Part shown: positions 12,374 through 60,614 of the stretch, one piece after another
Layout: every line of letters begins with the position of its first letter
How positions within the stretch are numbered: the stretch's first letter is position 1
Origin: a virus
Direction: 5' to 3' (one strand)
DNA: 64,000 bases
IMG/VR virus record: IMGVR_UViG_3300011980_000002
Span: 159,033 to 223,032 of that record
Translations under genes and position numbers: made by a program
The notes under the pieces: generated by a model
What the model saw: the letters and a program-made list of their open reading frames with translations, nothing else
The model's database searches: none
What the model was told of the DNA's origin: nothing

Positions 12374-12389
12374 TTAAGTCAATGTTTTT
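12374..12389 (-). promoter_or_regulatory. AACA-N6-TA late-type promoter candidate for the set B beta-prime gene
   Basis: The minus strand reads AAAAACATTGACTTAA, 67 nt upstream of ATG 12319. Confidence 0.5.
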
Positions 12390-12407
12390 AGCCCTAAAAA
12401 CCCTATG

Positions 12408-12423
12408 AAAAACATTGACCTAA
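12408..12423 (+). promoter_or_regulatory. AACA-N6-TA late-type promoter candidate
   Basis: AAAAACATTGACCTAA, 55 nt upstream of ATG 12465. Forms a 12-bp inverted repeat with 12378-12389. Confidence 0.5.
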
Positions 12424-12464
12424 ATTAAAACTAAGATAAAAATATTATACAGAAAGGATTTATT

Positions 12465-13709
12465 ATGGATATACAAGTTCCTGTATTTAGTAAATATGAT
12501 GATAATGATATGAGTGATTTACTATTTACTGAAGCCTCCGGTGCAACAACAATAGTAAAGACATATCTCGAACCATTCGTAACGAATACATTAAATGACC
12601 CAATTAAAGATAAAAAATTTAAAAAATTAATATCAGATTTTATTAATAGAAATATGACTGAGTTAAATAAATCTGGACCAATTAATCTTATTGCTGTTAC
12701 TGATATAGATAAGGATAATTTCTTTAATTTATTCGGTATTAATAAAAAAGAACTAATTTCTACCATAGCATCTGCTACAAGTAAAATTAATGATAAAGCT
12801 AATTGGAAACTTATACAACAAAATCCATTATTCTCATTATTATATATGGCTATAAGACATTATATAATTAAGAAAGATGAAAGTGGAATTAAAGCTGGAA
12901 TTACTATGTATGCATTAGCATCTTATCCATCAGTATTTTCTTTATTCTTTAAGCATGGAGCTAAGGAAGATGTTATGGCTTATACGATAGATAATTTAAC
13001 AGAGAAATTTACAATTAAGAAAGAAGGTACTATCTTTAAGACTTTAATATCTTCTATAACCGGTTCATTTGCTTTCTTAAAGAAAGAATTTATCGGAGCA
13101 GATGATGTGGAAATTGTAAGATGGGTTACGAGAATAAGAAATGACCAGAAATCATTAATTAAGAAAATTGCTAATCTTTATTATGAAAATGATAAAAAGG
13201 GATTAAGGATATTAACACAGACAGAAAACTTTGGTGATGGTAATATGATACAAGATACATTGAATAATAGTGGTATTGTTGAAAATATTACTAGAAAAGT
13301 AGCACAGGCTATGATTATCAATGGTGTTGATATGGTAAGGGCTAGTGCAGCCGCTAAATTTGCACAAATATCTATGTCAGATTTAAGAATATATCTTACC
13401 AATATGGTAATAGATAAGAAGGTTGGAGAAATATCTAAATTTATAGAATCTGTGTTATTCACATTTCTATATATAGACAACTATCAAGCTCATCAGATTA
13501 ATGACAGAGTATTTTTATCATTTGCCCTGAATTTATTCAGGAGAACTAATAGTAAAGATAACAATATTGTTACAATAAGGACTTTATTAGATAAGTGGTC
13601 TGATGATTTAGGAATACATGATAGATTTAAAAGAATAGCTTCCCAGATTAATTATAAGAAGGGATTATTTATGTATATCATATTATGTATACAATATCAC
13701 AATAATTAA
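12465..13709 (+). CDS. Hypothetical protein (late-type promoter)
   Basis: 414-aa ORF with SD AGAAAGGA. AACA-N6-TA motif at 12408. Divergent from the beta-prime gene. Confidence 0.6.
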   Translation: MDIQVPVFSKYDDNDMSDLLFTEASGATTIVKTYLEPFVTNTLNDPIKDKKFKKLISDFINRNMTELNKSGPINLIAVTDIDKDNFFNLFGINKKELISTIASATSKINDKANWKLIQQNPLFSLLYMAIRHYIIKKDESGIKAGITMYALASYPSVFSLFFKHGAKEDVMAYTIDNLTEKFTIKKEGTIFKTLISSITGSFAFLKKEFIGADDVEIVRWVTRIRNDQKSLIKKIANLYYENDKKGLRILTQTENFGDGNMIQDTLNNSGIVENITRKVAQAMIINGVDMVRASAAAKFAQISMSDLRIYLTNMVIDKKVGEISKFIESVLFTFLYIDNYQAHQINDRVFLSFALNLFRRTNSKDNNIVTIRTLLDKWSDDLGIHDRFKRIASQINYKKGLFMYIILCIQYHNN

Positions 13710-14330
13710 ATATAATTTATAAACTATTTATTAATCATATTTAGAATATTTGATTATGGGTTTTTCGATTATATAAACATTTTGCCAAATTGAAAAATCA
13801 TGAAAGAAATATTCTCCGTTAAAAAATGATTTTCTTATTATATAAAAATCTAAAAGTAAGTATTATATAAGGTCTTTGTTAATTTATGTATATTTTTGCT
13901 TAACATTGGTTCGTGGTTTTATGGTCGTAATTTATTACACATTTAAAAGATTCCCGCCTGTCTCAAAAATTTAAATGAAATATAATTGCGTCATATTTTG
14001 TTTTTAATAGAGACCATGATAATACACTATCAACACACTTTAAGATTATGATGAAAGAATTTCATTTTTTATTAAGTATTGTATACAGATACTTTAGACA
14101 TTATAGCCTGTTGTGTAAGCTCATGGGTTGAAACCTTCAAAAAATAGATAAGAAATAAATATAAATAAACGCTTGAGGCTACGCAAGTTAAAAGACTCTT
14201 ACGAAGAGATGAGATTATGTATTTAAATACATAATCAGTAGCAGATAAGAAACACGGTTCTTCTTTATTATTATTTTACGAAATTCCCAAGTCTATTAAA
14301 TAAATTCTAAATATGTTAAAATTAAGAAAT

Positions 14331-14359
14331 ACCAGAATATAGATAATCTATATTCTGGT
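14331..14359 (-). terminator. Intrinsic terminator of 14378..15649
   Basis: ACCAGAATATAG / CTATATTCTGGT stem, T-rich on the minus strand. Confidence 0.6.
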
Positions 14360-14377
14360 ATTCTTTGTAGGCGATTT

Positions 14378-15649
14378 TTATCCTTTGATATCAAATAAGG
14401 TTTTTACTAAAGTCTGTATATAGTTAAAATTAATACAGATATACATGGTATATGTATATAATCCATATTTATCATTATTAAACTTAATATTATAATTATC
14501 CCAATCTATTTTATAATCTTTATTTTCAAATAATAATACACCTTGTCTTCTTACTTTAATATCTATTAAATCAAATAATGGTAATCCATTCTTTAAGTGG
14601 TAATTAACCGCTTCTCTTATAGATGTATTAATAACTTCTCCAAAATCTACATCATCGTTTTTCTTCTCTAATCTAAATGATACATTTGTAAATAAATTCC
14701 AACCATTCTGAAGATTTAAATCTTCTTTTAACATTACATCTGTATATGTCGGTATAATAATATCTCTACTATCAAATTCTTTATTAATAGGAATATCTGG
14801 TATTTTCTTATTAGAGAATAGATAATATAATCCTGTAGTAAAGAATTCCATTCTTACAGAAAATGTAATCTGATAATCTGTAGTTGTATAACCTGATTTT
14901 TCCCCATCATTACTACTTAATGAACTTAATAAAGTATCTATTTTAACCGGATAATATCTATAGAATTCTTTTAATCTACTTCCACCTTGTAATTTATAAG
15001 TAATTGGGAATATGGAATGGGAATTCAAATAAGTTAAAAATCTTGCAGTAGTTCCATCTTCATCTACAATAGGAATACCTGTTATCTTACTAATTGTATC
15101 CATCATAGACGGAGAAAGATAAGACTCTAAAAATGTATTTACATCTTGTGGGTGATTAAATACAGTCTTATTTAGTAAATAATCCATAAAGTTCATTTGT
15201 TCCATTTTCGTAGATAGTATTATTATTACATCAGCATACATAATACTTCTGTTTAATTGGAATCTTATATCAAAACCATTACTATCATCTCTAAAGAATG
15301 GCATTAATGCTCCCATATCATGAGTAAAATGTAATCCTAATCTTGGTTCCAATAATGCTGTTCCCTCTAAAAATCTTGAGTCATCAAAATCTACTCTAGG
15401 AGAAATTGCAAATATAGGTCTTTCTTTTACTTTAAATGATTTAGGTGTGCTTATAATTTGTCTATGAGCAATTTTACTATTAACATGTATAGTCTTAAAG
15501 AAATTCTCCGGAAATAAATTAATTAACCAATTCTGTATAAAGGCTATTGCGTTACCATATGTGTGGGAAGATGAACACATAAATTCAGCCTGTTGGAATG
15601 GTTTTACCATATGATTTTCTATTATAAGATGGTCATCATGTTCTATCAT
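14378..15649 (-). CDS. Hypothetical protein
   Basis: 423-aa ORF with SD GGAAAGGA on the minus strand. Terminator hairpin at 14331-14359 downstream. Confidence 0.6.
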   Translation of the reverse strand: MIEHDDHLIIENHMVKPFQQAEFMCSSSHTYGNAIAFIQNWLINLFPENFFKTIHVNSKIAHRQIISTPKSFKVKERPIFAISPRVDFDDSRFLEGTALLEPRLGLHFTHDMGALMPFFRDDSNGFDIRFQLNRSIMYADVIIILSTKMEQMNFMDYLLNKTVFNHPQDVNTFLESYLSPSMMDTISKITGIPIVDEDGTTARFLTYLNSHSIFPITYKLQGGSRLKEFYRYYPVKIDTLLSSLSSNDGEKSGYTTTDYQITFSVRMEFFTTGLYYLFSNKKIPDIPINKEFDSRDIIIPTYTDVMLKEDLNLQNGWNLFTNVSFRLEKKNDDVDFGEVINTSIREAVNYHLKNGLPLFDLIDIKVRRQGVLLFENKDYKIDWDNYNIKFNNDKYGLYTYTMYICINFNYIQTLVKTLFDIKG

Positions 15650-15701
15650 CAGTTTTGTTTATGTCCTTTCCATTTATATTTTTTCTAATATATGAGATTT
15701 A

Positions 15702-15713
15702 TATATTTGTGTT
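15702..15713 (-). promoter_or_regulatory. Weaker AACA-N6-TA candidate
   Basis: The minus strand reads AACACAAATATA, 64 nt upstream of ATG 15649. It lacks the upstream A-run. Confidence 0.3.
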
Positions 15714-15787
15714 CTGATATAACTAATAGTAATTAATTGATATTAGCACAAAATAATAAAATCTATATATAGAAAGGAACTAAGATA

Positions 15788-16099: not shown

Positions 16100-16130
16100 T
16101 TAGATTATAATTAAGAAAGGTTGTCAATAA

Positions 16131-17351
16131 ATGAGTACATTAGTCGCAAAGACTGGATTATTTACAATTAGAGCTAATTTTACTAATAACTTAGTAAAGA
16201 TATTGGAATATGCTTCAAGGACTTGTTATAATTCTTATGATAAGATAGATATTGATACTTGGAAAACTCATATTACATCAAGAATTAAAAGTAAGCATGA
16301 GTCTGTTATTGAGCATGGTAGATTTGCTGTTATAATAGATTATTCTGTGTTTGATATATTTCATTTCGATGTAGAAGATGTCTATAAAGAAGTTGAAGTT
16401 ATCAATAGGATAATGGCTGAAAGCAATTCTTTAATAAGATATGCTAAAGAAGATTATTACTTAATTAAATATCCTAAAGTACCTATAATATCTTTATCGG
16501 GTAATATGAAAATGTGGAGAGATTTAATTAAGTTTATATTTACTAATAAATCAGAATATCTATCCAGTACAATGAGATTTATCATAAAGATATTTGCTAT
16601 ATATGATAAAAAGTATAGTGATGTATTTGGATTAGATATACCTGAATTAATTAAATATAAACCAGTATCTCTTGAAGGTAATTTATTTAATATCCCTAAT
16701 GATAATATTATAGAAAATATTACTACAAGAGATAGATTAAATGATATAGAGAAGGATAAATTACCTAAGATATATGACAATAATGGAATTACTTCAAGAC
16801 TAATTAATTTAGACCATTTTGGTAGAGGATTGTTAATAGAACCAGATATTCCATCACATATATTAGAGTATTTAAGAGACCATGTGTTAGATATAAACTC
16901 TGTAACTTATGTAATAGACTTACCAAGAGCTATATCATTACAAGAAGCAAGACATAGAATAAATTCTATATCTCAAAGGTCTCAAAGATATGTTAATGAG
17001 TCAATAGAAGATTCTACATATTATATACCAGATTATATAGATAAGGATAAGAAGTATAAATTGGACAATGGTATAGAAATATCGTATGATGAATATTTTA
17101 AATTATCTTTATCTTTATATAATGAATTAATTAAAGATAAAATAAAGAAAGAAGATAGTAGGTTTGTATTACCTAGTGGAATGAATACTACTATGATAAT
17201 AACTAAACCACTACATACATTACCTCATTATTTCTTTGAAAGATGTGCTAAAGGAGCACAGAAAGAGATAAGAGAACCTGCTATAGCATTAAGAGATTTA
17301 TTAAATACATCATATAACTATGTAACTGGTGAAGATAATAAATTATTTTAA
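16131..17351 (+). CDS. thyX: Flavin-dependent thymidylate synthase ThyX with large internal insertion
   Basis: SKHESVIEH, the ThyX signature ARHRINSISQRSQRYV (RHRxxSxxxxSxR) and C-terminal AQKEIREPA are present. About 190 aa separate the first two motifs, where canonical ThyX has about 25-30. Confidence 0.8.
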   Translation: MSTLVAKTGLFTIRANFTNNLVKILEYASRTCYNSYDKIDIDTWKTHITSRIKSKHESVIEHGRFAVIIDYSVFDIFHFDVEDVYKEVEVINRIMAESNSLIRYAKEDYYLIKYPKVPIISLSGNMKMWRDLIKFIFTNKSEYLSSTMRFIIKIFAIYDKKYSDVFGLDIPELIKYKPVSLEGNLFNIPNDNIIENITTRDRLNDIEKDKLPKIYDNNGITSRLINLDHFGRGLLIEPDIPSHILEYLRDHVLDINSVTYVIDLPRAISLQEARHRINSISQRSQRYVNESIEDSTYYIPDYIDKDKKYKLDNGIEISYDEYFKLSLSLYNELIKDKIKKEDSRFVLPSGMNTTMIITKPLHTLPHYFFERCAKGAQKEIREPAIALRDLLNTSYNYVTGEDNKLF

Positions 17352-17358
17352 TTAAAGT

Positions 17359-19080: not shown

Positions 19081-21141
19081 ATGGAACCTATCATAAAGCA
19101 TATTTCCACAGAAGAAGAAATGAAGAAGCATATAAAACCATTATATGTAATTCATGATTATATGGATAATGATGAATCATACATAGATTTTCAAGAGTCT
19201 ATGTATGATTTGATTAAAGGATGTTTCGAATATCATAAACTGAGGACTTATCCGATTAATTTTAAATTCTATGAAAGTGATACAAAAGTTCATACATTAG
19301 AACTTAGATTTTTCGTAGTAAATTTATTTTATTGGTATCCTCTTATTAATTTAAACAAGTTTAAAGATGTTATAGATGAGAGTTTTATCATTACTAAATC
19401 TACCGATGTAATTCATATTAATAAGTGGATTGATAATTTAATGATAACCTTATCTGATTATCATGTTAAACCTGTTGTAATAAACAGATACATTTCTACA
19501 GCCTTATATAATATAAGAAGAGTCAATGCAGACTTTTCTGAAATTATGGGACTAAACTTTGATTTAGTAACTATATTTGAAATGTATTGTAATAATAAGA
19601 CGATACATGATTTGATGGAACTAAATATAGATGAGGAAATGCAACCTAATGAAATAGAGGAAATCTTATTAGACGCAGAAGAGAAATTAATTAATGAATT
19701 AATGTCTATTAAGAATAATCCTATCGGGACAATATTAAGAAGTGGAACTGGTATTAAACATAAGCAAGCTGTAGAGTTCTTTATATCTAAAGGACTAATG
19801 CCTACAATAGATGGAACTACTATACCATTACCAATAAAGAATTCTACTTTAATTGGTGGTATTAGTAAAGCTTCTGATTTATATATAGATGGTACAGGTT
19901 CACGAAAGTCATTAATAATGTCTCATACGGTAATGGGTAATGCCGGTCATTTTGGTAAGATGTTAGCCGAATTAGCCAGAACTTTATCATTATCTAAAAG
20001 AGTTGCAGATTGTGGTACTAAGCATAGAGTTAAATACTTTGTAGAAAGTAAGAAATTCTTAAAGAAATTAGATAATAGATATTTCTCATTAACTAAGAAC
20101 GGGGAATTGGAATTACTTAAGGCTAATAAGATGGAATATCTTATTAATAAAGAAATTTATGTAAGATCCCCAGCTACTTGTTGTTTAGAGAATGAAGTAT
20201 GTCCAAGATGTATGGGCAAAATAGCTACATTTAATTTCGATATTGCGGCAGGATTTTGTGCTTTCTTAATTAAAGAAGTTACTAAAGTATTAGAGCAGAA
20301 TATATTATCTACTAAGCATCTACTTACTACAACTTCAGAGAAGATTGAGTTTAATGAAACTTTCCATAAGTATTTCACATTATCATCTAATGAGGTTAAT
20401 ATTAATCTTAATGATAATGAAGAAATTGAATCTATTGAAGATTGGGTAATGATATTAAATAAAGATACTATAGAGAAAGAAGATGATATGGATATGGAAG
20501 AAGGTCTTAATACATATATATCTGATGGTAAATTTACTGTTAAGAATATAAAGACTAATCAGACATTTGAAATATCAGAACTTGGAAAGAAGAATCTTTA
20601 TTTATCAGATGAATTAATAGAATTATTTAAATCTAGTAGTACAATTAAATTCTCAGACTTGGATGAAAGTGCTCCACTATTTATTATTCAGATTTCTAAT
20701 AATGAATTAACAAGACCATTGTATGAAATTATGGATATAATCAATACTAAGAAGAAAACTGACTTTGAAAGAACTATAGATAATATGGCACAAAGATTCG
20801 TTCAGTTATTAATAGAGTCTAAGATTGCTGCTCCTGCGGTATCTGCTGAAGTTATTATTAACAGATTACTTAGACTTCCTGATGATATGTTTAATAGACC
20901 AGATTTCAATTCTGTCAAAATGCCAGATTATACTATTTCAACAAGTATGGCTTCTTTAGAGAGGAATAACTCAGCTAGTGTTGGTTTAGCTTTTCAGTTC
21001 TTAAATAGGCAGTTAACTAACTTAGAGTCTTTCACTAAAAAGAGTTCACCATCATACCTCGACCCGTTATTCAGAGAAGAGGTCTCAACTAAAAAGGTGA
21101 AGAAATTTATGAAATATATCAATAAAAAAGATAGGAAATAA
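19081..21141 (+). CDS. Multisubunit RNA polymerase beta-prime-like subunit, set A, C-terminal half
   Basis: VRSPATCCLENEVCPRCMG is followed by AAGFCAFLIKEVTKVLEQNILSTKHLLTT (compare G.AVG.IAAQSIGEPGTQLTMRTFH). There is no DFDGD loop, so this is only the C-terminal part. Confidence 0.8.
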   Translation: MEPIIKHISTEEEMKKHIKPLYVIHDYMDNDESYIDFQESMYDLIKGCFEYHKLRTYPINFKFYESDTKVHTLELRFFVVNLFYWYPLINLNKFKDVIDESFIITKSTDVIHINKWIDNLMITLSDYHVKPVVINRYISTALYNIRRVNADFSEIMGLNFDLVTIFEMYCNNKTIHDLMELNIDEEMQPNEIEEILLDAEEKLINELMSIKNNPIGTILRSGTGIKHKQAVEFFISKGLMPTIDGTTIPLPIKNSTLIGGISKASDLYIDGTGSRKSLIMSHTVMGNAGHFGKMLAELARTLSLSKRVADCGTKHRVKYFVESKKFLKKLDNRYFSLTKNGELELLKANKMEYLINKEIYVRSPATCCLENEVCPRCMGKIATFNFDIAAGFCAFLIKEVTKVLEQNILSTKHLLTTTSEKIEFNETFHKYFTLSSNEVNINLNDNEEIESIEDWVMILNKDTIEKEDDMDMEEGLNTYISDGKFTVKNIKTNQTFEISELGKKNLYLSDELIELFKSSSTIKFSDLDESAPLFIIQISNNELTRPLYEIMDIINTKKKTDFERTIDNMAQRFVQLLIESKIAAPAVSAEVIINRLLRLPDDMFNRPDFNSVKMPDYTISTSMASLERNNSASVGLAFQFLNRQLTNLESFTKKSSPSYLDPLFREEVSTKKVKKFMKYINKKDRK

Positions 21142-23600: not shown

Positions 23601-23617
23601 AAAAAACATATACCTAA
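23601..23617 (+). promoter_or_regulatory. AACA-N6-TA late-type promoter candidate for the giant gene
   Basis: AAAAAACATATACCTAA, 59 nt upstream of ATG 23663. Confidence 0.5.
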
Positions 23618-23662: not shown

Positions 23663-26600
23663 ATGGCGAGAAATCGAAATGGATCTATATTAAAATCTTT
23701 TTCAAATAATATTCGTAGTAAGTCTAAACAGATATCTACACCATGGTTAAAAAATGCCATGAAAGGTATCGGAGCTGCTGCGAAGGATACGCTAAAAGAT
23801 ATTGCTCCTGTTTTATATGATGCATCTACTACTGCTGGTAAAGCTAGTAAAGATGCAATTACTTTATTGCGTGGTAATACAAATGCTACTGCAATGAATA
23901 AGTTAATATCTAAAAATATATATGTAAGAACTGCCAGAGACATGATCAAATGGACAATGGAAGATTTACGTTCAGGTAAATTATTTAATGAAGATCGTGT
24001 TACCGACATATTAATGGGTGGTGATGGAAGTGGTTCTGCAATGAGTGACCCAGACTCAATGTTTTCAGACTGGGACATGGACGATGATGGAAGTTCCGGT
24101 AATGTCATTATTAATAATAATTCTGATAGTAGTAATGCCGGATTTGCATTAGCAGTTAATGAAGGATTAAGAGAATCTACAATGGCACAACTCAAAGGTC
24201 AACAAGCAATGGTTGATACTATGGTTGCTATTAGTGGAAGTCAAATTCTTCAAAATCAAGAGATAGGTAATCAGATTATTACCCAATTAACTAATGTAAA
24301 TAATAATCTTATTGCTATAAATGAATTTAACAAAACTACTATGACAAGTTTTGTTACAACTGTTACCGCTTATATGGAAAAAATGGGTAAGAAAGCAGAT
24401 GAATATGATTCATCTGAAGAGAAATTTGACCCAGCATCTATATTTAGTGGTGGATTTAATTTAGGTAACTATGGTAAGCATATTAAAAAGAATGTAAAAA
24501 CAGCATTTGAGAATTCTGATATTGGATTTGTTCATAGTTTAGTTAGTGACCCAGAGACGCTTAAACTAATTACAGCTAATCCATTAGGTGCATTAACAAC
24601 TTTAACAATGAAAGCAATGACTCCTAAGTTAATGAAAAAGACTATGAGTCAGATAGATGAAGCTGTTGCGGGATTTATGCCATCGTTATTAATGAGAATA
24701 GGTGAGTTATCTGAATCCAGAGAACTTGGATGGAAAGGTAAACTTAAACGATGGATAGGTGATGTATTTGGATTACAAAATGTATCTAATACTGATAGAA
24801 ATAAATTAAATCCTACTAAAAATATCACTAAAGATGCAGCAGTATTTGATGGTATTACAAGACATACTATTGTAGAAATAATTCCTAAATACTTAAGTGA
24901 ATCTGTATCATATCTTAAAGAATTGGTTCATGTTAATGGTGGTAATGTTGGTAGGGCTATGGGAAGTCGAGAAATCTTCGACTTTAATAAAGGTAGATTT
25001 AGTACCGTAGCTAAATCAAGAAGAGACTTATATGAACAGATAAGAAGTTCAGGTACTGATGTAATTGCTAGTGGTAAATTAGGTAGACATATCGAATCTA
25101 ACAGTGGTGCTGCTTATACTGACAAAGATGGTAAATACGATAATAAAGCATTAGAGCAATGGAATGATATGGTAACCAAATTCTACGATCAATTAGAGCG
25201 TATGAATAAAATGATAGACATGACTAATTTCTCCGAAGATGGAGATATTATGAAAGCTATCAAGGGAACCGGATATGGTGGTAAGATGGCTGAGTTCTTA
25301 AAACAACTCATGATAGAAGCATCTAAAGATACATCTATTACAACTACCGCTAACTCAGATTTCCAAAGAGCAAGATACTCAAGAAAAGCTACCATTAAAG
25401 ATATGAATGAAAATCCGGATTATTATAATCTTAGTGCTGTAGCAAATCTTAGTGAAGATATTGATCAAACAATGGACAGAGTATTTGGTGGTGTATTTGG
25501 TAATCCAAATGAAATCAAACAATCCGGTTCAATGGTTAAAACTTTATCTGATATAAGATATATTCTTAATAGAGGAATTAATGTAAGAATTACTGGGCAT
25601 GGACCATATCAAACATTTACCGGTCAAGAAACTAATATTTCTAGTATCACTAGAGAAAACGCTCCTCAAAGAAATACATCTCCACAATCATCTCAAAATG
25701 ATGAAGACAAAGCTGGTCCAACTAAATTGGAAGAAATGTCTACTGAAGAGATGATAAATCATGTTGCTGAAAATGGTACTTTGTATAACGATGATACTAA
25801 GACTACTAAGAAAGTTAAAGATATAATGCACGCATTACTATTTGGAAATGCTTCAATGGCATTTAGTGGTGTTGCAGATATATTTATTAGTAAGATTAAT
25901 GGTGTTATCGATGTAATAGATAAAGACTTTTTCCAACCAATGAAAGCAAGTTTATTCGGTACTAAAGATGAACAAGGTTATTCTCGTAATGGTGTATTCT
26001 CTGGAATGCAGCAACAGTTTACAGATTACTATAGAAGTATTGTAAGACAGTTTAATGGTAAAGGATATACTGACTCTAAAGGTCAAAAACATGAGGATAT
26101 TACTGACCCAAGTAAATCTGTTGTAGGACAAATTAAAGCTACAGTATCGGATATAAAAGAAACTGTAGTAGATTATGTTTTAGGTCCTAAAGATAGCGAG
26201 ACTGGTAAAAGAGAAAAAGGTATGGGTCTTGTTAATATCTTTAGAGATGGAATTGAAGGATGGGGAAAAGCTATCTTTGGAGAAACTGAAGATGGTAAAC
26301 CTAAATTCGATGCAGAGAAATTTAAAAAAGAAGTAAGTGAAAGAATGCCTAGTGCTGTTACTGGAGCTTTAGGTGGTGCTGTTCTTGGTAGTATGACAAG
26401 TGGAAGTTTACTTGGTTGGTTAGTTGGTGGTCCTGTTACTGGTTCTATATTAGGATTAGCTACTGGATTTGCTTCTAAGAGTAAAAAGTTCCAACAATTC
26501 CTATTTGGTGAAAAAGACGAAGAAGGTAATATTGTCAGAGACAGTGGTATCATCAATAAGAAAATGCAAGACTGGTTCAAGAAGAATAAAGTTCCAATCA

Positions 26601-29600
26601 TAGGTGGAGCAGCAGTTGGAGCTGCGAAATCTGTATTACTTGGTAATGGATTTTTAACAGGAATGGTTGGAAACATCATAGGCGGACCATTAGCTGGAGC
26701 ATTACTTGGTTCTATTGGTGGAATAGCTTTAAGATCTGAAGCTTTTAAAACTTTCTTATTTGGTGATATGGATAAAGTGGATGCACACGGAAATCGTGGA
26801 TGGCATAAGGGAATAATCCCAATGTTTAAAGGTATCTTTAAGAAAAATGATGGTACGACAGATGAAGGTAAATCAATGCTTGGAATGGCTGGTATTGGTG
26901 CTGGAGTTGGTTATTTATCTGCGGCTGTTATTGGTAAGATGGGATTTTTAGGTGCCATGGCAACCCCATTTGGTCCGATTGGTGGTGCTATTGCAGGTTT
27001 AGCATTATCTATTAAAGCATCTCAAGGTGGATTTAGAGAATGGTTATTTGGTAAGGAAAATGAAGATGGAACAAAATCTGCTGGTATATTAGGAAGATTT
27101 GCTAATATGTTAAATGCAGAATTACTTACACCATTTAAACAAGGTGCAATGGAATTTGCATTAGATACTAGAGACTTCTTAATAGATAAGATTATGGCTC
27201 CTATTGAATTTGCTATAGAACCATTTGCAAATGCAATGAAAGACTTAGGTGATAAAATTAAGAAAACCTTTGAGAAAGTTGGTAATTTTATCGTTGATTC
27301 TATAAAAGAACACATGATAAAACCTATAACTGAAACTATTGGTAAGTACATATTATCACCTATAAGAAAAACATTCGGTATATTATTTAAATTAACTACA
27401 GGAATAATTAAATCTATCGTAGCTGCTCCATTTTCTGCTATAGGAATGATGGCTAATTACGGTGAATATAAAGAGCGTAAGCGTAGTAGAAGAATGGCTA
27501 TTGATGATGTCTATGAAGAACAAGGTTTACTTGGTGGATTAATTCATCAAGGTAAGGTTATGCTTAACTATGGTGGAGCTAGAGAAGCTGCTAACTATAA
27601 ACATCATAGATATTCTGACTGGGGTGAGCGTAAGAAACGTTATGAAGCTGATAGATTAAGAAGAGCTGAAGAAAGAAAAACCCAAAAAGAAGAGGGTAGA
27701 AGAAATGTCCGTAATAGGATATTAATGGCTCGTTATTCTGGTGGAGAATTATTAGAAGATAGTGAAGAAAATCGTGCTAGATTAGAGGAGATGCTAAAAA
27801 ATAGTCCTCGTAAGCGTAAACTATTTGGATTATTAGCTGATAAACCTAATTTCAAAGGTGCTGCTACTGAAGAAAATAGATCTACCAAATTAGATAATAG
27901 CAATATTATCAAAAATGCAGATAGTCCAGGTTCTCCAGTAGATGAAAGACAGTTGGGTACTCAGTTAAGTATCTTAGATTTACTTAGAAAGATATTTGGT
28001 CTAAATAAGGATAATAAGAAACTTAAAGGGTCAAGAAAATTTACTGGTGGAAGAAGAACTACAACAGAAGATGGTGAAAATCCAGAGTCTCAAACAGACG
28101 AAGAGGTTATTAACGATGAAGATGAAAATAGACCAGCTCATAAATCTTTATTCCAAAGATTAAGAGAATATAATTATGGTAATTTAAATCCATTCAAGAG
28201 ATTCTTCGGAGATAAAGCAGATAAAGGTGACAGACCTCGTATAAGATATTATGCCGAAGGTGGAGACCATAAAGAAGATGGAATGGCTGTAGTAGGAGAA
28301 GAAGGACCGGAGTTAGTAAGATTAGCTAGAGGTTCTAGGATATTTGGTGGTAGAAAACCATTGCCTGTTACAGTTGTTGATATGAATAGTAAAGCTGTTA
28401 GTAAGTTTAAAGTAGCCACTGCTCCTAAAATATCTGAAGAAGCTGGAGTTACAGTAACCAGAAGAAGTCTCATTGATAAACAGAGAGAAGAGGATAAATC
28501 AGATTACCAGAAACAAAAAGATGCTGGTAAACTTGAGAATATTGAGAAGAGAAAACTCGAAGAAGAAAAGCTTAATATGGAACGAGAAAATCATGACAAT
28601 ATTAAAGCTACAAGAGAAACTCAAGAGAAATTCTCATTAGGATGGGGTAAGATATTCTCTAAAAAAGGAATAATTACTGCTGGATTTATGATACTATTAC
28701 CACTATTAATCAAATGGTTAATGGGAAAAGGTGGTGATGGTGGTGGAATCAGTGGTCCAGATATCGGTAAACAAGTTTTAAACGATTTATCATTCGGACA
28801 AGACCATTTACAAGATGGAAAAAGTACTCCTGAAATGATAAAAGAAACCATGGATGATACTAAGCATCTTTTTAAAGGTGATATATGGAAATGGGTAACA
28901 TCTGATGGTGGATGGGATCATGAAAGCGGTGCTAAACTAAATGCATTAGGGCATATTCCAGTTGCTCTTGGTGGATTATTAAGACCTTTCCTAAAAACTG
29001 GTACTAAACAAAATAAAGCTGTGATGAATTTCATCAATGGTTTTAAGAATAGTAAATTCTTAGGATTTGGTAAAAGACAACTTGGAAGAGCTGGTAGTGC
29101 TATAGGTTCAGGTGCAGGTCGTTTTGGTACAAGAGCATTAGAATACATGGATGAAGCTGGAGCTGGTATTAATCTTGCAGTTAATATGAGAGCTGCTAAT
29201 CCAGGTTCAAGAATGAAAGATGTACTTAAAGATATGAAACTCATTAAACAAGGTGAGGGTTCATATAGAGAAGCATTAGAAACCATGAAAACATTCCAGA
29301 ATTCAGGATACGGAAGTATGGATGAAGCTCTTGGAATGATGGGATATGGTGGAGAAGGATATAAAGTACTTGGAAAAGGTAGTGGTGTCGGAGATGACAT
29401 AGTTAGAAATACAAGAAGAGTAATAGGTCCAAATGCTGCTAAAACCGGTGGTCTCCGTGAAACAATGATGCGTCAGAAAGAAATGGCTAGATTAGCTAAA
29501 AACGAAACTAGTGTTGGTAATAAATACTTGGCTAGTTTAGCTGATGATGGCGATGAACTTGCTAAATTATTAGGTGATACATCTGGAGCAACTAACTCTG

Positions 29601-35989: not shown

Positions 35990-36007
35990 ATAAAAGAAAT
36001 AAATTAT

Positions 36008-36044
36008 ATAGTGTACTAGAATTAATTCTAGTACACTATTTTTT
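36008..36044 (+). terminator. Intrinsic terminator after the giant gene
   Basis: Perfect 32-nt palindrome ATAGTGTACTAGAATTAATTCTAGTACACTAT followed by T5. Confidence 0.8.
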
Positions 36045-36075
36045 AATTAAATTAAGAAAGGATTTGTGATTAAAT

Positions 36076-41680: not shown

Positions 41681-41697
41681 AAAAAACATTACCTTAA
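41681..41697 (+). promoter_or_regulatory. AACA-N6-TA late-type promoter candidate
   Basis: AAAAAACATTACCTTAA, 50 nt upstream of ATG 41734. Confidence 0.5.
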
Positions 41698-41733: not shown

Positions 41734-43029
41734 ATGGGAATAGTTAATGACCTACAAAAAATAGCTAGAACCGGTGCTAATATTGCGGCTGCTAAAGAAA
41801 GCTTATTAAAAACCAGTATAGCTAAAAGAGCCAATGATTCAATATTCCAATTTCCATGTATAGTATCTAATACTATACCTATAGATATGGCATCTACTAT
41901 AACTAAACTACTTGATAGAAACTATGCTTCATTTGTACAGATAGTTTTATCACATATAGCAAATGTAGATTTATCTGTAAATAGAACTCCTAATCAATTC
42001 CTTAAATCAGTACATCAAAACATGAGATTGGAATCAGGTAATGATGATGATATCTATGAACAAGATTTATATAATGGGGAAAATATATTTGCTGTTAATG
42101 AAGAAAGTGGAATAGCTTTTGTTATGGAAGCTCATAAAGGTGGACATATTAAAAATCTTAGACAGTTGAATATTCATGAATGTAGAGAGTATTTATCAGA
42201 TTATGATATTAGACCATTTATGGAAGCTGATATGAACTTAGAGCCTGGCGATATTACAGTTTCTGGTTTATTAGCAAATAGTGCCAGAAATAATGCTTTG
42301 AAAAAAGAAATCGATATTACTAAGGTAAATGCTGAGATTTCTAAGAATCTTAAAGGTCCTCAATTAACGTATAATGATGTTAAAAAATTAAATGATTTAA
42401 CTCCATATGCAATAGAGGTTAAACTTAATGTAATTGATGAAGAAAATAGATTCGTTGAGTATTGGAATTTAGTAGTTGGTGTTAAGACAATACTACATTT
42501 AGTAGATTCTAATGAGATTATAGAGAATATCTCAAGAGCTATACAAAATAGAGGTTTCTTCTTAAAGTTAATAAAATGGACTACTGGAGAAATTAGTTTC
42601 TTTAAAGATATTATTTTAGGACTTGATGATATTAAGTTTGATAATCTTTCAAGAGATAAAGGCTATAGTAGATTTTTCCCAACCTTAAGAAGATTAAAAG
42701 AAAGAAAAGTAGCATTTAGAAATTTTAAACCAGATAAAATAGTTCCAAATGCATCTTTAATAATTTCTTCTTATGAGTTATTTGAAATTCAGAAGAGATT
42801 TAATATAAATCTTAAAGACCTTAAGATAGCCAGAAAGTTAATGAGTCAATTATTCTTAATGACATTTGTTATTATAGATGATTCTACTCAGACTGTAGAT
42901 ATTCTGTATGATGGAGATAATACCATTGGAACAGGTTTCCAGACTTATGCATTAGAGACTATTGAAAGAGAAATGAATCTTTCTTCTAATAGACTTGGTA
43001 AAGAGATTGGAAGAATGATATCAAGATAG
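41734..43029 (+). CDS. Hypothetical late protein (possible structural)
   Basis: 431-aa ORF with SD AGAAAGGGG. AACA-N6-TA motif at 41681. Confidence 0.6.
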   Translation: MGIVNDLQKIARTGANIAAAKESLLKTSIAKRANDSIFQFPCIVSNTIPIDMASTITKLLDRNYASFVQIVLSHIANVDLSVNRTPNQFLKSVHQNMRLESGNDDDIYEQDLYNGENIFAVNEESGIAFVMEAHKGGHIKNLRQLNIHECREYLSDYDIRPFMEADMNLEPGDITVSGLLANSARNNALKKEIDITKVNAEISKNLKGPQLTYNDVKKLNDLTPYAIEVKLNVIDEENRFVEYWNLVVGVKTILHLVDSNEIIENISRAIQNRGFFLKLIKWTTGEISFFKDIILGLDDIKFDNLSRDKGYSRFFPTLRRLKERKVAFRNFKPDKIVPNASLIISSYELFEIQKRFNINLKDLKIARKLMSQLFLMTFVIIDDSTQTVDILYDGDNTIGTGFQTYALETIEREMNLSSNRLGKEIGRMISR

Positions 43030-48936: not shown

Positions 48937-48970
48937 AATATACTATTTATGTGTAATAAAATAAATATAT
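48937..48970 (+). promoter_or_regulatory. Early-class promoter-like motif (class 1)
   Basis: AATATACTATTTATGTGTAATAAAATAAATATAT, with ATCCGTATTTCT box upstream. Confidence 0.65.
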
Positions 48971-49276: not shown

Positions 49277-50767
49277 ATGTCTAAGAAAAGAAAAGTTAAA
49301 CTGTATAGAAGAAACTGGGACATTGATTATATTGAATCTTTGATGACAGGACAAGGATTTACTATAACAGAAATGCCCACAGTTTCTTTAGATGGTGTTA
49401 AGAAGAAAAATCTCTATGGTCCTAGGTCAGAATTGTATGGAACTACTTATGGAGATGAACAAGAATTTGTTGAAAGATGCTCTTGTGATTGTGGTAAGAG
49501 TGTAGGATTAATTAAGAAAGGTGAGTATTGTCCTTTCTGTAATACTGTAGTAAAAGAAATCGGTGATAATATAAAATTCACCGGTTGGATATCATTAGGT
49601 AATGATAAAGTTATAAATCCTCAATATTTTAAATTGATTGGTAAAGCTATTGGTGTTACCGCTTTTAATGATATGATATCTGTAATAAAGAAGGTAGATA
49701 TTGATGGTAATATAACTACCTTAGAGAAAGATTCTCCGTTAGTAAAGAATTATACTTCTCCATTTATTGGAATTGGTGTAGATGGATTTAGAGAAAGATT
49801 CTATGAGATAATGGATTATTATGCTAAGAAGAAAAAGAATAAATCTGATTTAATAGATTTATTAAAGAGTGAAGTTAGGTCAGTATTTACTTCTCATATT
49901 CCGGTATATTCTACTAAGTTAAGACAAGAGTCTATAACAGAGGATACTTATTATTATGGTGGAATAGATAAAGAGATTAATTCTATGATACCAATAACTA
50001 AATTATTGGAAACTGCTACAGATATAGAAAGACCACATTACTTATTCAGAATACAAGAGAAAGTAAATAAAATGTGGGATATAAATTTCCAATTAATTAA
50101 TGGAAAAGAAGGTATAATAAGAGGACAGATTATGGGTGGTAGTTTAAACTACACCTCAAGAAATGTTATTATACCTGATTACGAATTACATGATGATGAA
50201 GTTGATGTATCATATTTTACAATGTTAGAATTAGCTAAAGAAACTATTGTGAGATATTTAATGAAGTCTGAAGATATTACCATTAATGAAGCCCATACCC
50301 AATGGAAATATGCTAAGATATCTTTTAGTGAGAAGATATATCAAATTATGTTATATATAATAGAGAAAGAACAACCGTGTATTGTACTTAATAGGAATCC
50401 TACTCTTAATTTCTATTCTCTATTATTTATGAAAATAAGACATGTTACAAGAAATCATAATCACTATACATTATCTGTACCAATCGCGATATTAACCGGA
50501 CTAAATGCAGACTTTGATGGTGATGTATTGAATATAATTCTAGTAACTCTTAAAGAACTTAAATATCTATTTAGGAAATTCAATCCTATAGAAAGAATGA
50601 TTGTCAGTAAAGATACCGGATTATTAAATGATTATTTCAGTATTACTAAAGGACAATTAATAGATTTATTCTATTTTCTTGAGATAGACTCTGATATATC
50701 AGAATTTACTCCTAGTAAAAATTCAGTTGGAAAGAGTCGTATGTTGGAAAAGATTAAACTTAGTTAA
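49277..50767 (+). CDS. Multisubunit RNA polymerase beta-prime-like subunit, set A, N-terminal half
   Basis: Zn ribbon RCSCDCGKSVGLIKKGEYCPFCN near the N-terminus. Catalytic loop LNADFDGDVLNI near the C-terminus. Confidence 0.85.
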   Translation: MSKKRKVKLYRRNWDIDYIESLMTGQGFTITEMPTVSLDGVKKKNLYGPRSELYGTTYGDEQEFVERCSCDCGKSVGLIKKGEYCPFCNTVVKEIGDNIKFTGWISLGNDKVINPQYFKLIGKAIGVTAFNDMISVIKKVDIDGNITTLEKDSPLVKNYTSPFIGIGVDGFRERFYEIMDYYAKKKKNKSDLIDLLKSEVRSVFTSHIPVYSTKLRQESITEDTYYYGGIDKEINSMIPITKLLETATDIERPHYLFRIQEKVNKMWDINFQLINGKEGIIRGQIMGGSLNYTSRNVIIPDYELHDDEVDVSYFTMLELAKETIVRYLMKSEDITINEAHTQWKYAKISFSEKIYQIMLYIIEKEQPCIVLNRNPTLNFYSLLFMKIRHVTRNHNHYTLSVPIAILTGLNADFDGDVLNIILVTLKELKYLFRKFNPIERMIVSKDTGLLNDYFSITKGQLIDLFYFLEIDSDISEFTPSKNSVGKSRMLEKIKLS

Positions 50768-52596: not shown

Positions 52597-52625
52597 TTGA
52601 CAATTATGTAAGTTAAATTTATAAT
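52597..52625 (+). promoter_or_regulatory. Perfect sigma-A/sigma-70 consensus promoter
   Basis: TTGACA (52597-52602), an exact 17-nt spacer, then TATAAT (52620-52625), 23 nt before ATG 52648. The inverted repeat TAACTTAC/GTAAGTTA (52586-52593 / 52608-52615) straddles the -35 element. Confidence 0.6.
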
Positions 52626-52647: not shown

Positions 52648-52917
52648 ATGGATGCAAAATTTTTTTGTTTATCTAAAGAAGATTCACAAAACCCAGAGAA
52701 GTCTGGATTAAAGTATGCAATGTCTAAAAAGGGTGAATGGAAACCATGTCCGATTTCTGATATGCTTGCACAGATAAATCAATATCAATCTGCTACATCT
52801 TATATTGTCATTGATAATGTCGCTTATACGATATTTAAAGATTATATAATATTATCAGAAAATACAAGACTGTATATATTAAAAGATAGAAACTTAGATA
52901 CTGATAGATTAAGTTAG
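52648..52917 (+). CDS. Hypothetical protein
   Basis: 89-aa ORF with SD AAAGGAG. Downstream of the perfect sigma-A-type promoter at 52597. Confidence 0.5.
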   Translation: MDAKFFCLSKEDSQNPEKSGLKYAMSKKGEWKPCPISDMLAQINQYQSATSYIVIDNVAYTIFKDYIILSENTRLYILKDRNLDTDRLS

Positions 52918-54507: not shown

Positions 54508-54524
54508 AAAAAACTTTAATCTAA
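54508..54524 (+). promoter_or_regulatory. Degenerate late-type candidate (AACT instead of AACA)
   Basis: AAAAAACTTTAATCTAA, about 60 nt upstream of ATG 54571. Confidence 0.25.
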
Positions 54525-54570: not shown

Positions 54571-55827
54571 ATGATACGAGGGAAATTTACTGAAGAGTCT
54601 CTTGTTGAGTTAGATCAAATATTTTCTAAAATAATCAGTAGTAAAATATTTAATAATGAAATTGGTCATATAGAAGATATTCTTAAAAAAGAGATTGGTA
54701 ATACATATAATATTAGACTAATGGACTATGATAAAAATACAATGCTAAGGTACATGAATATTACACCAGATAAAAGTGGTATAGATAAAATTATAGAAGG
54801 TATAGTGTCTAACTATAGAAGAAAAGAGATATATGGTATATGGAAGAATATTAAGACTTGGTATATTAATATTGATAGTAGAATATTAGATGGTAAGTTC
54901 TTTACTCCAAGACAATTAACTGCTATGTTATTACATGAGATTGGTCATAGTTTAGAAACTAATACATTTGTAGTTGATAGAGTTATAGATAATGTCCAAT
55001 GGCAATTAGCTCAAAAGAATATTGGTATTAAAGCAGTATTTAATGAAACTATGATGAAGTATATGTTAAGAATACCTGTATTAAGAGCTATAAAAGCTTC
55101 TAAATTATCTAAGCAAGATTATATTAATGAAATTGGAGCAGACTATGTAGCAGTAGTTAATGGATATGCTAAAGAATTAAAAGAGGTATTTGATATTATT
55201 GTAAATCAGAAAATTACAGTATATCAAGCTATGAAGAACAGAATGAAAGAATATGATAAAGTAGATGATTTGCATCATTATGATGGCATTATCGATGCAT
55301 TAAGAAAAAGAAGGTCTAATATAGCTAGGCAACAACTTAAATTAATGATAATAGATAAACCTGTGGATTATTTAAATGAATTATATAATGATACTTATGA
55401 TAGATTATTTAAAACTAATCCAATGAAATCTGAATCAGCTAATTTTGATAATTTAATGGAGTCTGTAATTAATGCTTACGATAATGCTTATTTTACTGAA
55501 GCTTTTTCTATCTTCAAGAAAAAACTCAAAAAAATAGATAAGTTTACCCCAGATTATATAAGAATAAGAATGGGTGATATGAAAACTAATGATGATAAAT
55601 TATTATTAGTATCTTATATACATAGTAAAATAGACTTAATAGATTTTTACTTAGATATATTAAAAGACCCAGAATTGTCTAAGAAGTATATTATACCTAA
55701 TTCTACTAATGAATTAATTAATATGAGAAAAGATTTAGAAAGGTCAAGAGAATTAATTCTTAAACAAAAGATAGAACCTATTAGATATGGTTTAGATATA
55801 ATATATCCTAAAGGATATGAAGGGTAG
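54571..55827 (+). CDS. Putative zinc metallopeptidase (HExxH)
   Basis: 418-aa ORF with LTAMLLHEIGHSLE. There is no other diagnostic motif, so the family is unknown. Confidence 0.4.
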   Translation: MIRGKFTEESLVELDQIFSKIISSKIFNNEIGHIEDILKKEIGNTYNIRLMDYDKNTMLRYMNITPDKSGIDKIIEGIVSNYRRKEIYGIWKNIKTWYINIDSRILDGKFFTPRQLTAMLLHEIGHSLETNTFVVDRVIDNVQWQLAQKNIGIKAVFNETMMKYMLRIPVLRAIKASKLSKQDYINEIGADYVAVVNGYAKELKEVFDIIVNQKITVYQAMKNRMKEYDKVDDLHHYDGIIDALRKRRSNIARQQLKLMIIDKPVDYLNELYNDTYDRLFKTNPMKSESANFDNLMESVINAYDNAYFTEAFSIFKKKLKKIDKFTPDYIRIRMGDMKTNDDKLLLVSYIHSKIDLIDFYLDILKDPELSKKYIIPNSTNELINMRKDLERSRELILKQKIEPIRYGLDIIYPKGYEG

Positions 55828-55861
55828 AAAATATTGCATAGAAAGGAAATGGGGTAAATCT

Positions 55862-56581: not shown

Positions 56582-56587
56582 ATTAAT

Positions 56588-56645
56588 AAAGAAGATAATA
56601 ATTCATCACTTATTTAAGTATAATTATTATCTTCTTTATATTTTA
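56588..56645 (+). terminator. Intrinsic terminator
   Basis: AAAGAAGATAATAATT / AATTATTATCTTCTTT, 16-bp stem. Confidence 0.65.
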
Positions 56646-56661
56646 ATTTGAAAGGGTTATT

Positions 56662-59007: not shown

Positions 59008-59017
59008 AATTCTCTAT

Positions 59018-59033
59018 GAAAACAGAAATTTAA
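59018..59033 (+). promoter_or_regulatory. AACA-N6-TA late-type promoter candidate
   Basis: GAAAACAGAAATTTAA, 47 nt upstream of ATG 59068. Confidence 0.45.
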
Positions 59034-59067
59034 TACTTATAATGAAAGGAAATGAATATCAACTACA

Positions 59068-60012
59068 ATGGCTAATAAAAGAATAATAAATGATAATATG
59101 ATGTTTATTGATAGTGCCAATGAGTCTACAAGTAAACATCAGAATACATTTTGGAATGGAACATCTATATCAGCTTATCATGGATATAGATATAATAAAA
59201 GAACCGGTAAATCTGAATGGGATGAAGTTATATTTGAAGACGCTCATAATATTGTAACTATATCAGGTGTACAATTTGCAATGGAGAAATTATTCGGTAT
59301 TTCTGGCACTATTAATGTACCATCGCTACATTCAGAATTACAAATTGGTGCTGTTGAGGATACTGTTGCTTCTAAAGTAATACAAACACCAGCAGGAACT
59401 AAAACATCTCCATATAGTGCATCTGATGAAATATGTTTATTTGCAATCGGATTAACTGGTACAGGTGAAAGCTCTATTGTAAAGTACCCTGTTAATTACA
59501 GAGAGAAGTCTATAGAATTAGCTAAACTTGCTGAAGATAATACTAACTTAAATGGTATTATAATACCATTCAGATATACTCAACAAACTTTAACCGCAGC
59601 AGAACAGAAAATATATTTTGGTAAGAAGACTGTCGATGGTTATAATGCATATTATTTAAAGAAGTTTGATGCTGAACCTACAATAAGACATATATGGAAA
59701 ATAGATAGTGATGATGAAACAGAAACAGATATATCTGCATCAGAAGTATGGGATATAACAAGAAACACACCTGCAAGGTCATATACAGAAATGATACTTA
59801 CTATATCCAGTAAAGATGTAAAAGAGTGGGTTAGTGTTACTGGTAAAATTGGTGAACCGATATTTAATACCATAAGTTTATATCATGGTGAATATAATCA
59901 AGTTGGTGGAGACTATATGAATGTAAAGATGTTTAGTAAAGCTTATATACCAACAGAGAACTTATCTTTATCTAAGGATATCCAATTTGTATATAGAACT
60001 TACGGAGCATAG
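59068..60012 (+). CDS. Hypothetical late protein (possible structural)
   Basis: 314-aa ORF with SD GAAAGGAAA. AACA-N6-TA motif at 59018. Confidence 0.6.
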   Translation: MANKRIINDNMMFIDSANESTSKHQNTFWNGTSISAYHGYRYNKRTGKSEWDEVIFEDAHNIVTISGVQFAMEKLFGISGTINVPSLHSELQIGAVEDTVASKVIQTPAGTKTSPYSASDEICLFAIGLTGTGESSIVKYPVNYREKSIELAKLAEDNTNLNGIIIPFRYTQQTLTAAEQKIYFGKKTVDGYNAYYLKKFDAEPTIRHIWKIDSDDETETDISASEVWDITRNTPARSYTEMILTISSKDVKEWVSVTGKIGEPIFNTISLYHGEYNQVGGDYMNVKMFSKAYIPTENLSLSKDIQFVYRTYGA

Positions 60013-60023
60013 AAATTTAAATT

Positions 60024-60064
60024 AATAATAGATACTGGGTTAATTCCTAGTATCTATTATTTTT
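60024..60064 (+). terminator. Cassette terminator
   Basis: AATAATAGATACT / AGTATCTATTATT followed by TTT. Confidence 0.7.
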
Positions 60065-60090
60065 ATCCGTATTTCATATATATATATATT

Positions 60091-60122
60091 GATATACTAT
60101 TTATGTGTAAAATAAATATATT
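60091..60122 (+). promoter_or_regulatory. Early-class promoter-like motif (class 1)
   Basis: GATATACTATTTATGTGTAAAATAAATATATT, with ATCCGTATTTCA box upstream. Confidence 0.65.
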
Positions 60123-60139
60123 TATGCTCATATATGAGC

Positions 60140-60177
60140 AGGGTGGAGATAACGTCAAGAGCCCAGAAGGAGTTTAT
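60140..60177 (+). promoter_or_regulatory. Conserved 5' leader element, copy B
   Basis: AGGGTGGAGATAACGTCAAGAGCCCAGAAGGAGTTTAT lies between the early motif and ATG 60178. Preceded by the hairpin TGCTCATATATGAGCA. Confidence 0.45.
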
Positions 60178-60537
60178 ATGTTAATAGGAAGAACTACATT
60201 TGCAACAGAGTTATTTGATACTATCTGTGAGAAGTATTTCGAGATAATTGAGGGTATTAAAGATGACCTCAACATCGAGAAGTCATCCAGAGATGTATCA
60301 GCGGAATTTACATTCCTGTATAGACCTTTAGATAAGACACTGGCATATATGCCAGTAAACGAGGATGGGATGTTTACAGAGTATATGTATTTCTACTACC
60401 CATCAATATCAGATACCTGTAGTCCATATATAGTATTTAAATTAGATATAGGTGGATTGGTTAGATTGTACATGATGAACTATGAGGAGTTCAAGAAAGG
60501 AGTTATACATGTAAATAGGCTTGATACTGATTTTTAA
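60178..60537 (+). CDS. Early-cassette protein, unknown function
   Basis: The track ORF begins at 60103, inside the promoter motif. ATG 60178 follows SD AAGGAG, giving 119 aa. The conserved leader 60140-60177 is in frame upstream, so a longer form cannot be excluded. Confidence 0.55.
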   Translation: MLIGRTTFATELFDTICEKYFEIIEGIKDDLNIEKSSRDVSAEFTFLYRPLDKTLAYMPVNEDGMFTEYMYFYYPSISDTCSPYIVFKLDIGGLVRLYMMNYEEFKKGVIHVNRLDTDF

Positions 60538-60542
60538 AAAAT

Positions 60543-60584
60543 AAAACCCTGTATAATTTACTTACAGGGTTTTATTTTTTTTTT
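60543..60584 (+). terminator. Intrinsic terminator
   Basis: AAAACCCTGTA / TACAGGGTTTT followed by a long T-run. Confidence 0.8.
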
Positions 60585-60597
60585 GTATATGCCCAGT

Positions 60598-60614
60598 AAA
60601 AAACATATCTTTAA
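60598..60614 (+). promoter_or_regulatory. AACA-N6-TA late-type promoter candidate for the prohead protease gene
   Basis: AAAAAACATATCTTTAA, 51 nt upstream of ATG 60652. Confidence 0.5.

Follow-up and report, generated by a model that had tools for sequence, protein, structure and literature searches.

Do the copies of a short A-rich motif, AACA-N6-TA, that stand just upstream of six genes of an uncultivated jumbo phage act as promoters, and which RNA polymerase would read them? We addressed this question in a stretch of 64,000 nucleotides from the virus record IMGVR_UViG_3300011980_000002 (positions 159,033 to 223,032), hereafter called the window, which has a GC content of 26%. A first-pass annotation had likened the motif to the late promoters of Bacillus phage AR9, given as AACA-N6-TW. 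This is close to the published consensus, A(-11)ACA-N6-T-A/G(+1) (PMC5312081; PMC7598289), and one paper does write it with TW (bioRxiv 10.1101/2020.12.14.422802). Late promoters of jumbo phages that encode their own RNA polymerases have been stated to be unpredictable from sequence (PMC7598289; bioRxiv 10.1101/2020.12.14.422802). We conclude from the results below that the six sites are very probably AR9-type late promoters with an extended consensus, belonging to a distant clade of uncultivated phages.

Placement of the motif in the window

All six sites were found in the sequence as they had been described, each with its AACA 47-67 nt before the ATG; one coordinate, 59018, was one base off and is given here as 59019 (Table 1). 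When the preceding A-run and a third base after the spacer were included, the pattern common to the six sites was AAAACA-N6-TAA. Two weaker copies were also confirmed, one with AACT in place of AACA and one with a single core mismatch, and the list proved to be complete, as a one-mismatch scan of intergenic DNA added just these two.

In a genome of 26% GC a short A-rich motif spotted after the fact could have arisen by chance, and the totals lend this explanation some substance. AAAACA-N6-TAA occurs seven times in the window, relative to 3.07 expected from shuffled sequence, and at least seven copies were reached in 2 of 100 shuffles; the bare AACA-N6-TA occurs 44 times, with 35 copies within coding sequence. 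The weight matrix that we built from 12 orthologous sites and 8-nt flanks proved noisy, its top-scoring site being intragenic, and its total matches were not above the prediction of a Markov model; it was therefore replaced by fixed-pattern tests with spacing controls. The concern that background statistics might undo the motif was thus justified for the count alone, but not for its placement, which was clearly non-random. Six of the seven perfect matches were intergenic and oriented toward the next gene. They lay inside a zone, defined as intergenic and 15-100 nt 5' of a same-strand start, that makes up 2.4% of strand-specific positions (binomial P = 1.4e-9 for six of seven). The spacer length mattered as well, since none of the six matches with N5 and none of the three with N7 was upstream of a gene. 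The seventh perfect match, 6938-6952 (-), lies antisense within a gene and is a chance match, because its invariant C is changed to T (AAAACA to AAAATA) in a close relative of the phage, IMGVR_UViG_3300008575_000010, which is about 80% identical to the window in nucleotide sequence.

Table 1. Predicted promoters, polymerase genes and early-type repeats in the window; orthology was assigned by local tblastn of the window against AR9 genes
Feature	Coordinates	Strand	Sequence	Predicted start	AR9 counterpart	Remarks
Predicted late promoter of virion RNA polymerase beta' gene (9515-12319, -)	12374..12388	-	AAAACATTGACTTAA	A 12375, 56 nt 5' of ATG	g145 + g264	Conserved in close relative
Predicted late promoter of gene 12465-13709	12409..12423	+	AAAACATTGACCTAA	A 12422, 43 nt 5' of ATG	g052 (orthologue)	Back to back with 12374..12388 (-)
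Predicted late promoter of 4108-aa gene 23663-35989	23603..23617	+	AAAACATATACCTAA	A 23616	g204 (tape-measure homologue)	Conservation island in close relative
Predicted late promoter of virion protein gene 41734-43029	41683..41697	+	AAAACATTACCTTAA	A 41696	g214 (orthologue)	Conserved in close relative
Predicted late promoter of gene 59068-60012 (no family match)	59019..59033	+	AAAACAGAAATTTAA	A 59032		In close relative core same, one N6 base changed, flanks diverged
Predicted late promoter of prohead protease gene 60652-61548	60600..60614	+	AAAACATATCTTTAA	A 60613		Close relative retains motif, upstream DNA replaced
Probable variant late promoter of gene 54571-55827 and next virion genes	54510..54524	+	AAAACT-N6-TAA (mismatch at -8)			Perfectly conserved in close relative despite differing upstream DNA
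Weak candidate promoter of gene 14378-15649	15699..15713	-				One core mismatch, two possible registers; conserved in close relative
gp226 homologue, sigma-like specificity subunit of non-virion RNA polymerase	2909..4522	+			gp226	537 aa
Non-virion RNA polymerase beta' C-terminal subunit	19081..21141	+			g154 (orthologue)	Operon behind early-type motif
Non-virion RNA polymerase beta' N-terminal subunit	49277..50767	+			g270 (orthologue)	3' of early-type motif at 48944
Early-type repeat	4968, 9168, 17602, 22369, 40504, 47169, 48944, 50862, 52243, 60098	+
Early-type repeat	62023	-

Conservation in related phages

A megablast search of GenBank phages with the window gave no nucleotide matches, and relatives were reached via protein search alone. 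Scanning viral contigs with the 934-aa product of the beta' gene 9515-12319 (-) yielded 17 loci, of which 13 were distinct, with beta' identities of 36-89% and GC contents of 25-41%; the same protein is at most 28% identical over its full length to those of Fusobacterium phages and 32-37% identical to AR9 g145 and g264, each of which makes up half of that phage's virion RNA polymerase beta'. This beta' is encoded by a single fused gene in the window and in the Fusobacterium phages, whereas AR9 has two separate genes for it, g145 and g264, along with introns and homing endonucleases. When viral contigs were searched singly with the giant gene, the protease and the g214-like protein, the sole return was a relative at 80-90%, and conservation upstream of orthologues in distant phages could be assessed for the beta' gene, the g052-like gene and the 14378 gene only. 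The giant open reading frame itself, 23663-35989 (+), has a GC content of 33-38%, compared with about 26% elsewhere in the window.

Upstream of the beta' gene the motif was retained far beyond the close relative. In 12 of the 13 distinct orthologues (A)AAACA-N6-TAA was present 32-67 nt before the start, with the six spacer bases varying freely, and the distant relatives that kept it have beta' proteins just 36-47% identical. The same held for the two other genes open to this comparison: the orthologue of gene 12465 in relative L012 has the motif 45 nt upstream, and the orthologues of gene 14378-15649 in L011 and L012 have a perfect AAAACA-N6-TAA 41-45 nt upstream. In the close relative all eight window sites, perfect and weak, were conserved, several of them as islands in intergenic DNA that had otherwise diverged or been replaced.

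Spacing tests in 12 non-redundant distant loci (162.8 kb in total) gave the same picture as the window. The pattern AAACA-N6-TAA was upstream and intergenic at 37 of 44 occurrences, in a zone comprising 2.7% of positions; with N5 the figure was 0 of 11 and with N7 1 of 7. The longer AAAACA-N6-TAA was upstream at 34 of 38 occurrences and is almost absent from coding sequence (4 of 38). The logo of the clade's sites reads (A/G)AAAACA-N6-TAA, and AACA precedes the start codon by 32-63 nt, with a median of 44. At 18 of the 38 clade sites (loci L003-L017) there is also a weak C six bases 5' of AACA, near -17 (P = 9e-6); near the same position CCC or GGGC precedes the A-run at five of the eight window sites, and the AR9 promoters are without it. 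With matches confined to a small, correctly oriented fraction of the window, with the wrong spacers absent there and with the motif kept in independent genomes upstream of orthologues, the spacing controls, together with conservation across genomes, already amount in effect to a refutation of chance, to which we give next to no credence.

The preference for a six-base spacer extended to other phages. AR9 served as a positive control, with AACA-N6-T[AG] upstream and intergenic at 73 of 412 occurrences, relative to 5 of 469 for N5 and 9 of 455 for N7. In Fusobacterium phage JD-Fnp1 (L023, 1-37610) the corresponding numbers for AACA-Nx-T[AG] were 10 of 13 (N6), 0 of 23 (N5) and 1 of 12 (N7), and in Listeria phage LPJP1 AACA-Nx-TA was upstream at 8 of 49 occurrences with N6 and at none with N5 or N7. 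Yersinia phage phiR1-37 (L025, 102027-143331), for which no late promoter consensus had previously been reported, gave a weaker signal, with 6 of 41 (N6), 0 of 56 (N5) and 2 of 70 (N7). No enrichment (1 of 36) was seen in a 41-kb region of Staphylococcus phage UFV_DC4, a region that may hold mostly early genes. From the N6-specific signals in JD-Fnp1, LPJP1 and, less strongly, phiR1-37, it appears that the specificity of the non-virion polymerase is conserved across a wide AR9-like lineage.

Comparison with AR9 late promoters

Differential RNA sequencing and primer extension were used to map the AR9 late promoters, of which 94 conform to the consensus (PMC5312081, Table S3), and the core was established as a genuine initiation signal by primer extension together with transcription in vitro (PMC5312081; PMC5449584). 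Direct comparison with the AR9 logo showed agreement in the core and in the 6-nt spacing, the window sites having AACA at -11 to -8, a six-base spacer, T at -1 and the A of the A/G class at +1. If transcription starts at the first A of TAA, the predicted start lies 36-56 nt before the ATG at all six perfect sites, within the range of the AR9 primary leaders (mostly 17-70 nt) and of the 20-60 nt that the two systems have in common.

The genes served also correspond. AR9 g145/g264, g052, g204 and g214, the counterparts of four of the genes behind perfect sites (Table 1), have mapped late promoters with leaders of 22-61 nt (53 nt for g214), and their expression rises from 0-1.7 FPKM (fragments per kilobase of transcript per million mapped reads) at 5 min to 211-1427 at 40 min. 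Late expression and a mapped late promoter are likewise on record for g114, the protease gene of AR9. By orthology and function only, then, the window genes behind the motif would be late genes, and in both phages the targets are virion and morphogenesis genes. Promoters with AACT have been mapped in AR9 at g057, g198, g202 and g246, and the AACT variant at 54510-54524 is probably a late promoter too.

There were also differences. A-13, A-12 and A+2 are nearly invariant in the window clade, whereas in AR9 these positions are at background (A-13 in 42 of 94 promoters, A-12 in 44 of 94, and T36/A35/G19/C1 at +2). Of the AR9 core matches, 304 of 412 are in genes; only 4 of 38 copies of the extended motif lie in coding sequence in the window clade. 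The AR9 promoters were mapped experimentally, and those of the window are predicted from sequence.

The leaders behind the motif have a further peculiarity. In seven of the eight late-motif genes, namely 9515-12319 (-), 14378-15649 (-), 23663, 41734, 54571, 59068 and 60652, the gap from the Shine-Dalgarno AAGG to the ATG is 15-19 nt, compared with 6-12 nt in genes behind the early-type motif described below. For the beta' and protease genes, earlier starts are excluded by in-frame stops.

The divergent pair and the inverted repeat

The sites at 12374-12423 face away from each other and create a perfect 12-bp inverted repeat, GTCAATGTTTTT (12378-12389) and AAAAACATTGAC (12408-12419), whose presence we confirmed and whose N6 bases agree between the arms at five of six positions. 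A true palindromic operator bound by a repressor or activator would have just this form. The remaining sites are single and non-palindromic, however, each directed at its own gene rather than forming a dyad. Similar back-to-back pairs also occur in the distant relatives L005 and L017, where the arms have only the promoter core in common. AR9 itself has four back-to-back pairs, with mapped divergent start sites 34-52 bp apart, and one of these involves g052, the orthologue of gene 12465, whose promoter stands back to back with that of g051; the predicted starts of the window pair are 47 bp apart. The first-pass annotation had been right to doubt the operator. Since AR9, L005 and L017 have such pairs, the inverted repeat would be a by-product of two divergent promoters, and we regard a regulatory binding site as extremely improbable.

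Sites that follow a terminator or a stop codon

A motif at a fairly constant distance from start codons might instead function in the RNA, where it would mark a site of processing or form part of the 5' leader of longer transcripts, without being a start signal. The site at 59019 would suit such a role, as it lies 12 nt past the preceding stop codon with no terminator in between. The site at 60600 would not. It stands about 16 nt 3' of a terminator hairpin (60536-60584) with a T10 run, a folding energy of -20.5 kcal/mol and z = -5.85, and directly after such a terminator a new transcript must start, which counts against RNA processing. No transcript reading in from upstream is obvious at the divergent pairs, the motif stands anywhere from 32 to 67 nt before the ATG, and in AR9 the same core does initiate transcription (PMC5312081; PMC5449584). 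An RNA-level element is therefore very unlikely, and we return to the sites as promoters.

The polymerase machinery

In AR9 the late promoters are read by the non-virion RNA polymerase holoenzyme, whose gp226 subunit recognises 3'-UUGU-5' on the template strand (PMC5449584; PMC9209446). The window encodes the parts of such an enzyme, a gp226-like subunit and two beta' fragments (Table 1), just as AR9 has gp226 and split polymerase subunits. In BLASTP the product of 2909-4522 was 27% identical to AR9 gp226 over 373 aa (E = 2e-19). With AR9 excluded, a profile made from 24 clade members had 7S01_A (gp226) as its sole PDB match (E = 4.9e-27, residues 16-461, close to full length); phmmer with the gp226-like protein alone gave no match among PDB sequences. 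The gene order GroEL, g227, g226, primase is common to the window and AR9. We infer that the product of 2909-4522 is the reader of the motif.

A second class of repeat is present in the window, and differs from AAAACA-N6-TAA both in sequence and in the genes served. It is a long AT-rich element, ATATACTATTTA..TGTAA.TAAAATAA, found at 11 intergenic sites, with the consensus (G/A)ATATACTATTTAyNTGTAAnTAAAATAAATATAT, usually followed by the ribosome-binding region AAAGGAGAAAAAGAAATATG. Often it lies just past a terminator hairpin, 38-52 nt before small open reading frames and the non-virion polymerase operons. To judge from its sequence, it looks like the early promoter class of the window phage, recognised by the virion polymerase. 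In AR9-like phages the virion polymerase reads early promoters of the form AAATATATATTAT-N6-G(+1), and the long AT-rich repeat would be their analogue. The logic of AR9 would then be common to the window, with the non-virion polymerase expressed from early promoters and the virion components, the virion polymerase among them, from late ones.

This distinction bears on whether the motif could be a promoter of another class, read by the virion or host polymerase or active at a middle stage. We infer late timing and the identity of the polymerase by analogy; AR9 has continuously expressed genes, and phage phiKZ has a middle class of promoters, whose reader is a form of the non-virion polymerase as yet unknown (PMC7598289). 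The virion polymerase, however, would have its own distinct early-type motif at other genes. Sigma-70-like sites numbered 110 in the window relative to 124.9 expected and were thus not above chance, and the AR9 orthologues of the downstream virion genes are absent at 5 min. We therefore consider a promoter of another class unlikely, and the AR9-type late promoter remains the preferred reading. One perfect sigma-70 consensus, TTGACA-17-TATAAT, was noted at 52597-52625 (+), about 20 nt before gene 52648-52917.

Late promoters of phiKZ resemble those of the window in being short motifs in front of late virion genes, with a homologous five-subunit phage polymerase as reader. They have a different start-site motif, T(-3)ATG(+1), are read by a gp68-containing non-virion polymerase (PMC7598289) and lack AACA at -11. 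A phiKZ-type promoter was considered for the window and rejected, as the conserved positions are AAAACA and TAA and there is no conserved TATG.

Proposed mode of action and points against it

We propose, by analogy with AR9, that the motif forms late promoters read by the phage's non-virion multisubunit RNA polymerase, an enzyme that would consist of split beta and beta' subunits, two of them encoded in the window, together with the gp226-like subunit from 2909-4522. Transcription would begin with the first A of TAA. AACA (-11 to -8) would take the part of a -10 element, and what the enzyme reads would be its template-strand complement, 3'-TTGT-5' or 3'-UUGU-5'. The likeness to the sigma-70 -10 element, TATAAT, is that AACA would lie about 10 nt 5' of the start and be read by a sigma-like subunit after strand opening; the differences are the other sequence, the lack of any -35 partner at the window sites and, in AR9, the reading of the template rather than the non-template strand. 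The genes so served, with the operons behind them, would be those for the virion RNA polymerase beta', the g052-like protein, the tape-measure-like giant, the g214-like virion protein and the prohead protease.

Four observations weigh against this proposal. The overall count of the 15-nt pattern is just about twice that expected by chance. Relative L010 is without the motif upstream of its beta' gene. The virion genes 36076 (g205), 55817 (g125) and 56662 (g260) have no motif of their own, although in AR9 each orthologue has a late promoter, so that for the window one has to assume transcription by read-through within operons. Finally, the promoter-contacting gp226 residues V206 and Y210 are not conserved, and recognition may differ in detail to judge from the alignment. 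At two of these genes, 36076 and 56662, a terminator-like hairpin was seen in front of the gene (36000-36075 and 56582-56661, respectively), and neither hairpin is followed by a promoter motif.

Against these stand the match in core and spacing, the conservation in relatives, the late AR9 orthologues, the gp226-like subunit, the divergent pairs and the separate AT-rich early class, and it is on this evidence that we find the AR9-type late promoter, as the first-pass annotation had suggested, to be well supported.

Uracil or thymine DNA

AR9-type promoter reading calls for deoxyuridine at -11 and -10, and the valine of AR9 gp226 that excludes thymine at -10 (V206) is said to be absolutely conserved in phages with uracil DNA (PMC9209446). 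In an alignment about 23-27% identical to AR9, the counterpart of V206 is A241 in the window protein, and among 23 clade homologues it is K, P, A, T, M, L, R, N or V; AR9 Y210 aligned with K or Q in the window clade. The window also encodes a ThyX protein (16131-17351, +; 406 aa; PF02511, E = 1e-35) with a large extra insert and an intact RHRxxSxxxxSxR motif at residues 274-286, which suggests that the phage may make dTMP (thymidine monophosphate). No ThyX homologues were among the matches listed in AR9, PBS1, the Staphylococcus jumbo phages (S6) or phiR1-37, and AR9 has no annotated thymidylate synthase.

Together, the lack of conservation at V206, the presence of an apparently functional ThyX and the extended motif suggest, short of proof, a thymine genome and a promoter that would be independent of uracil. 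Among the loci fetched, ThyX was found in the window and its close relative only, so that the inference of thymine DNA does not extend to the clade. That the clade as a whole may use an AR9-style, template-strand-read AACA promoter with a gp226-like subunit on ordinary thymine DNA is a tentative idea, and we consider it somewhat less probable than its converse. In such a case the longer consensus (A-13, A-12, A+2), which is nearly purged from coding sequence, could replace uracil as a safeguard against spurious initiation.

Significance for the AR9-like lineage

Late promoters proved to be predictable in the window clade by means of spacing controls and comparison of the regions upstream of orthologous genes, and this offers a direct route to annotating late operons in genomes of the AR9-like lineage, whose apparently conserved polymerase specificity takes in many uncultivated phages. 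The clade provides a natural test case for whether template-strand reading of a promoter needs uracil DNA. If its promoters are in fact read on thymine DNA, the uracil dependence of AR9 would be a lineage-specific add-on and not a built-in property of this type of promoter.

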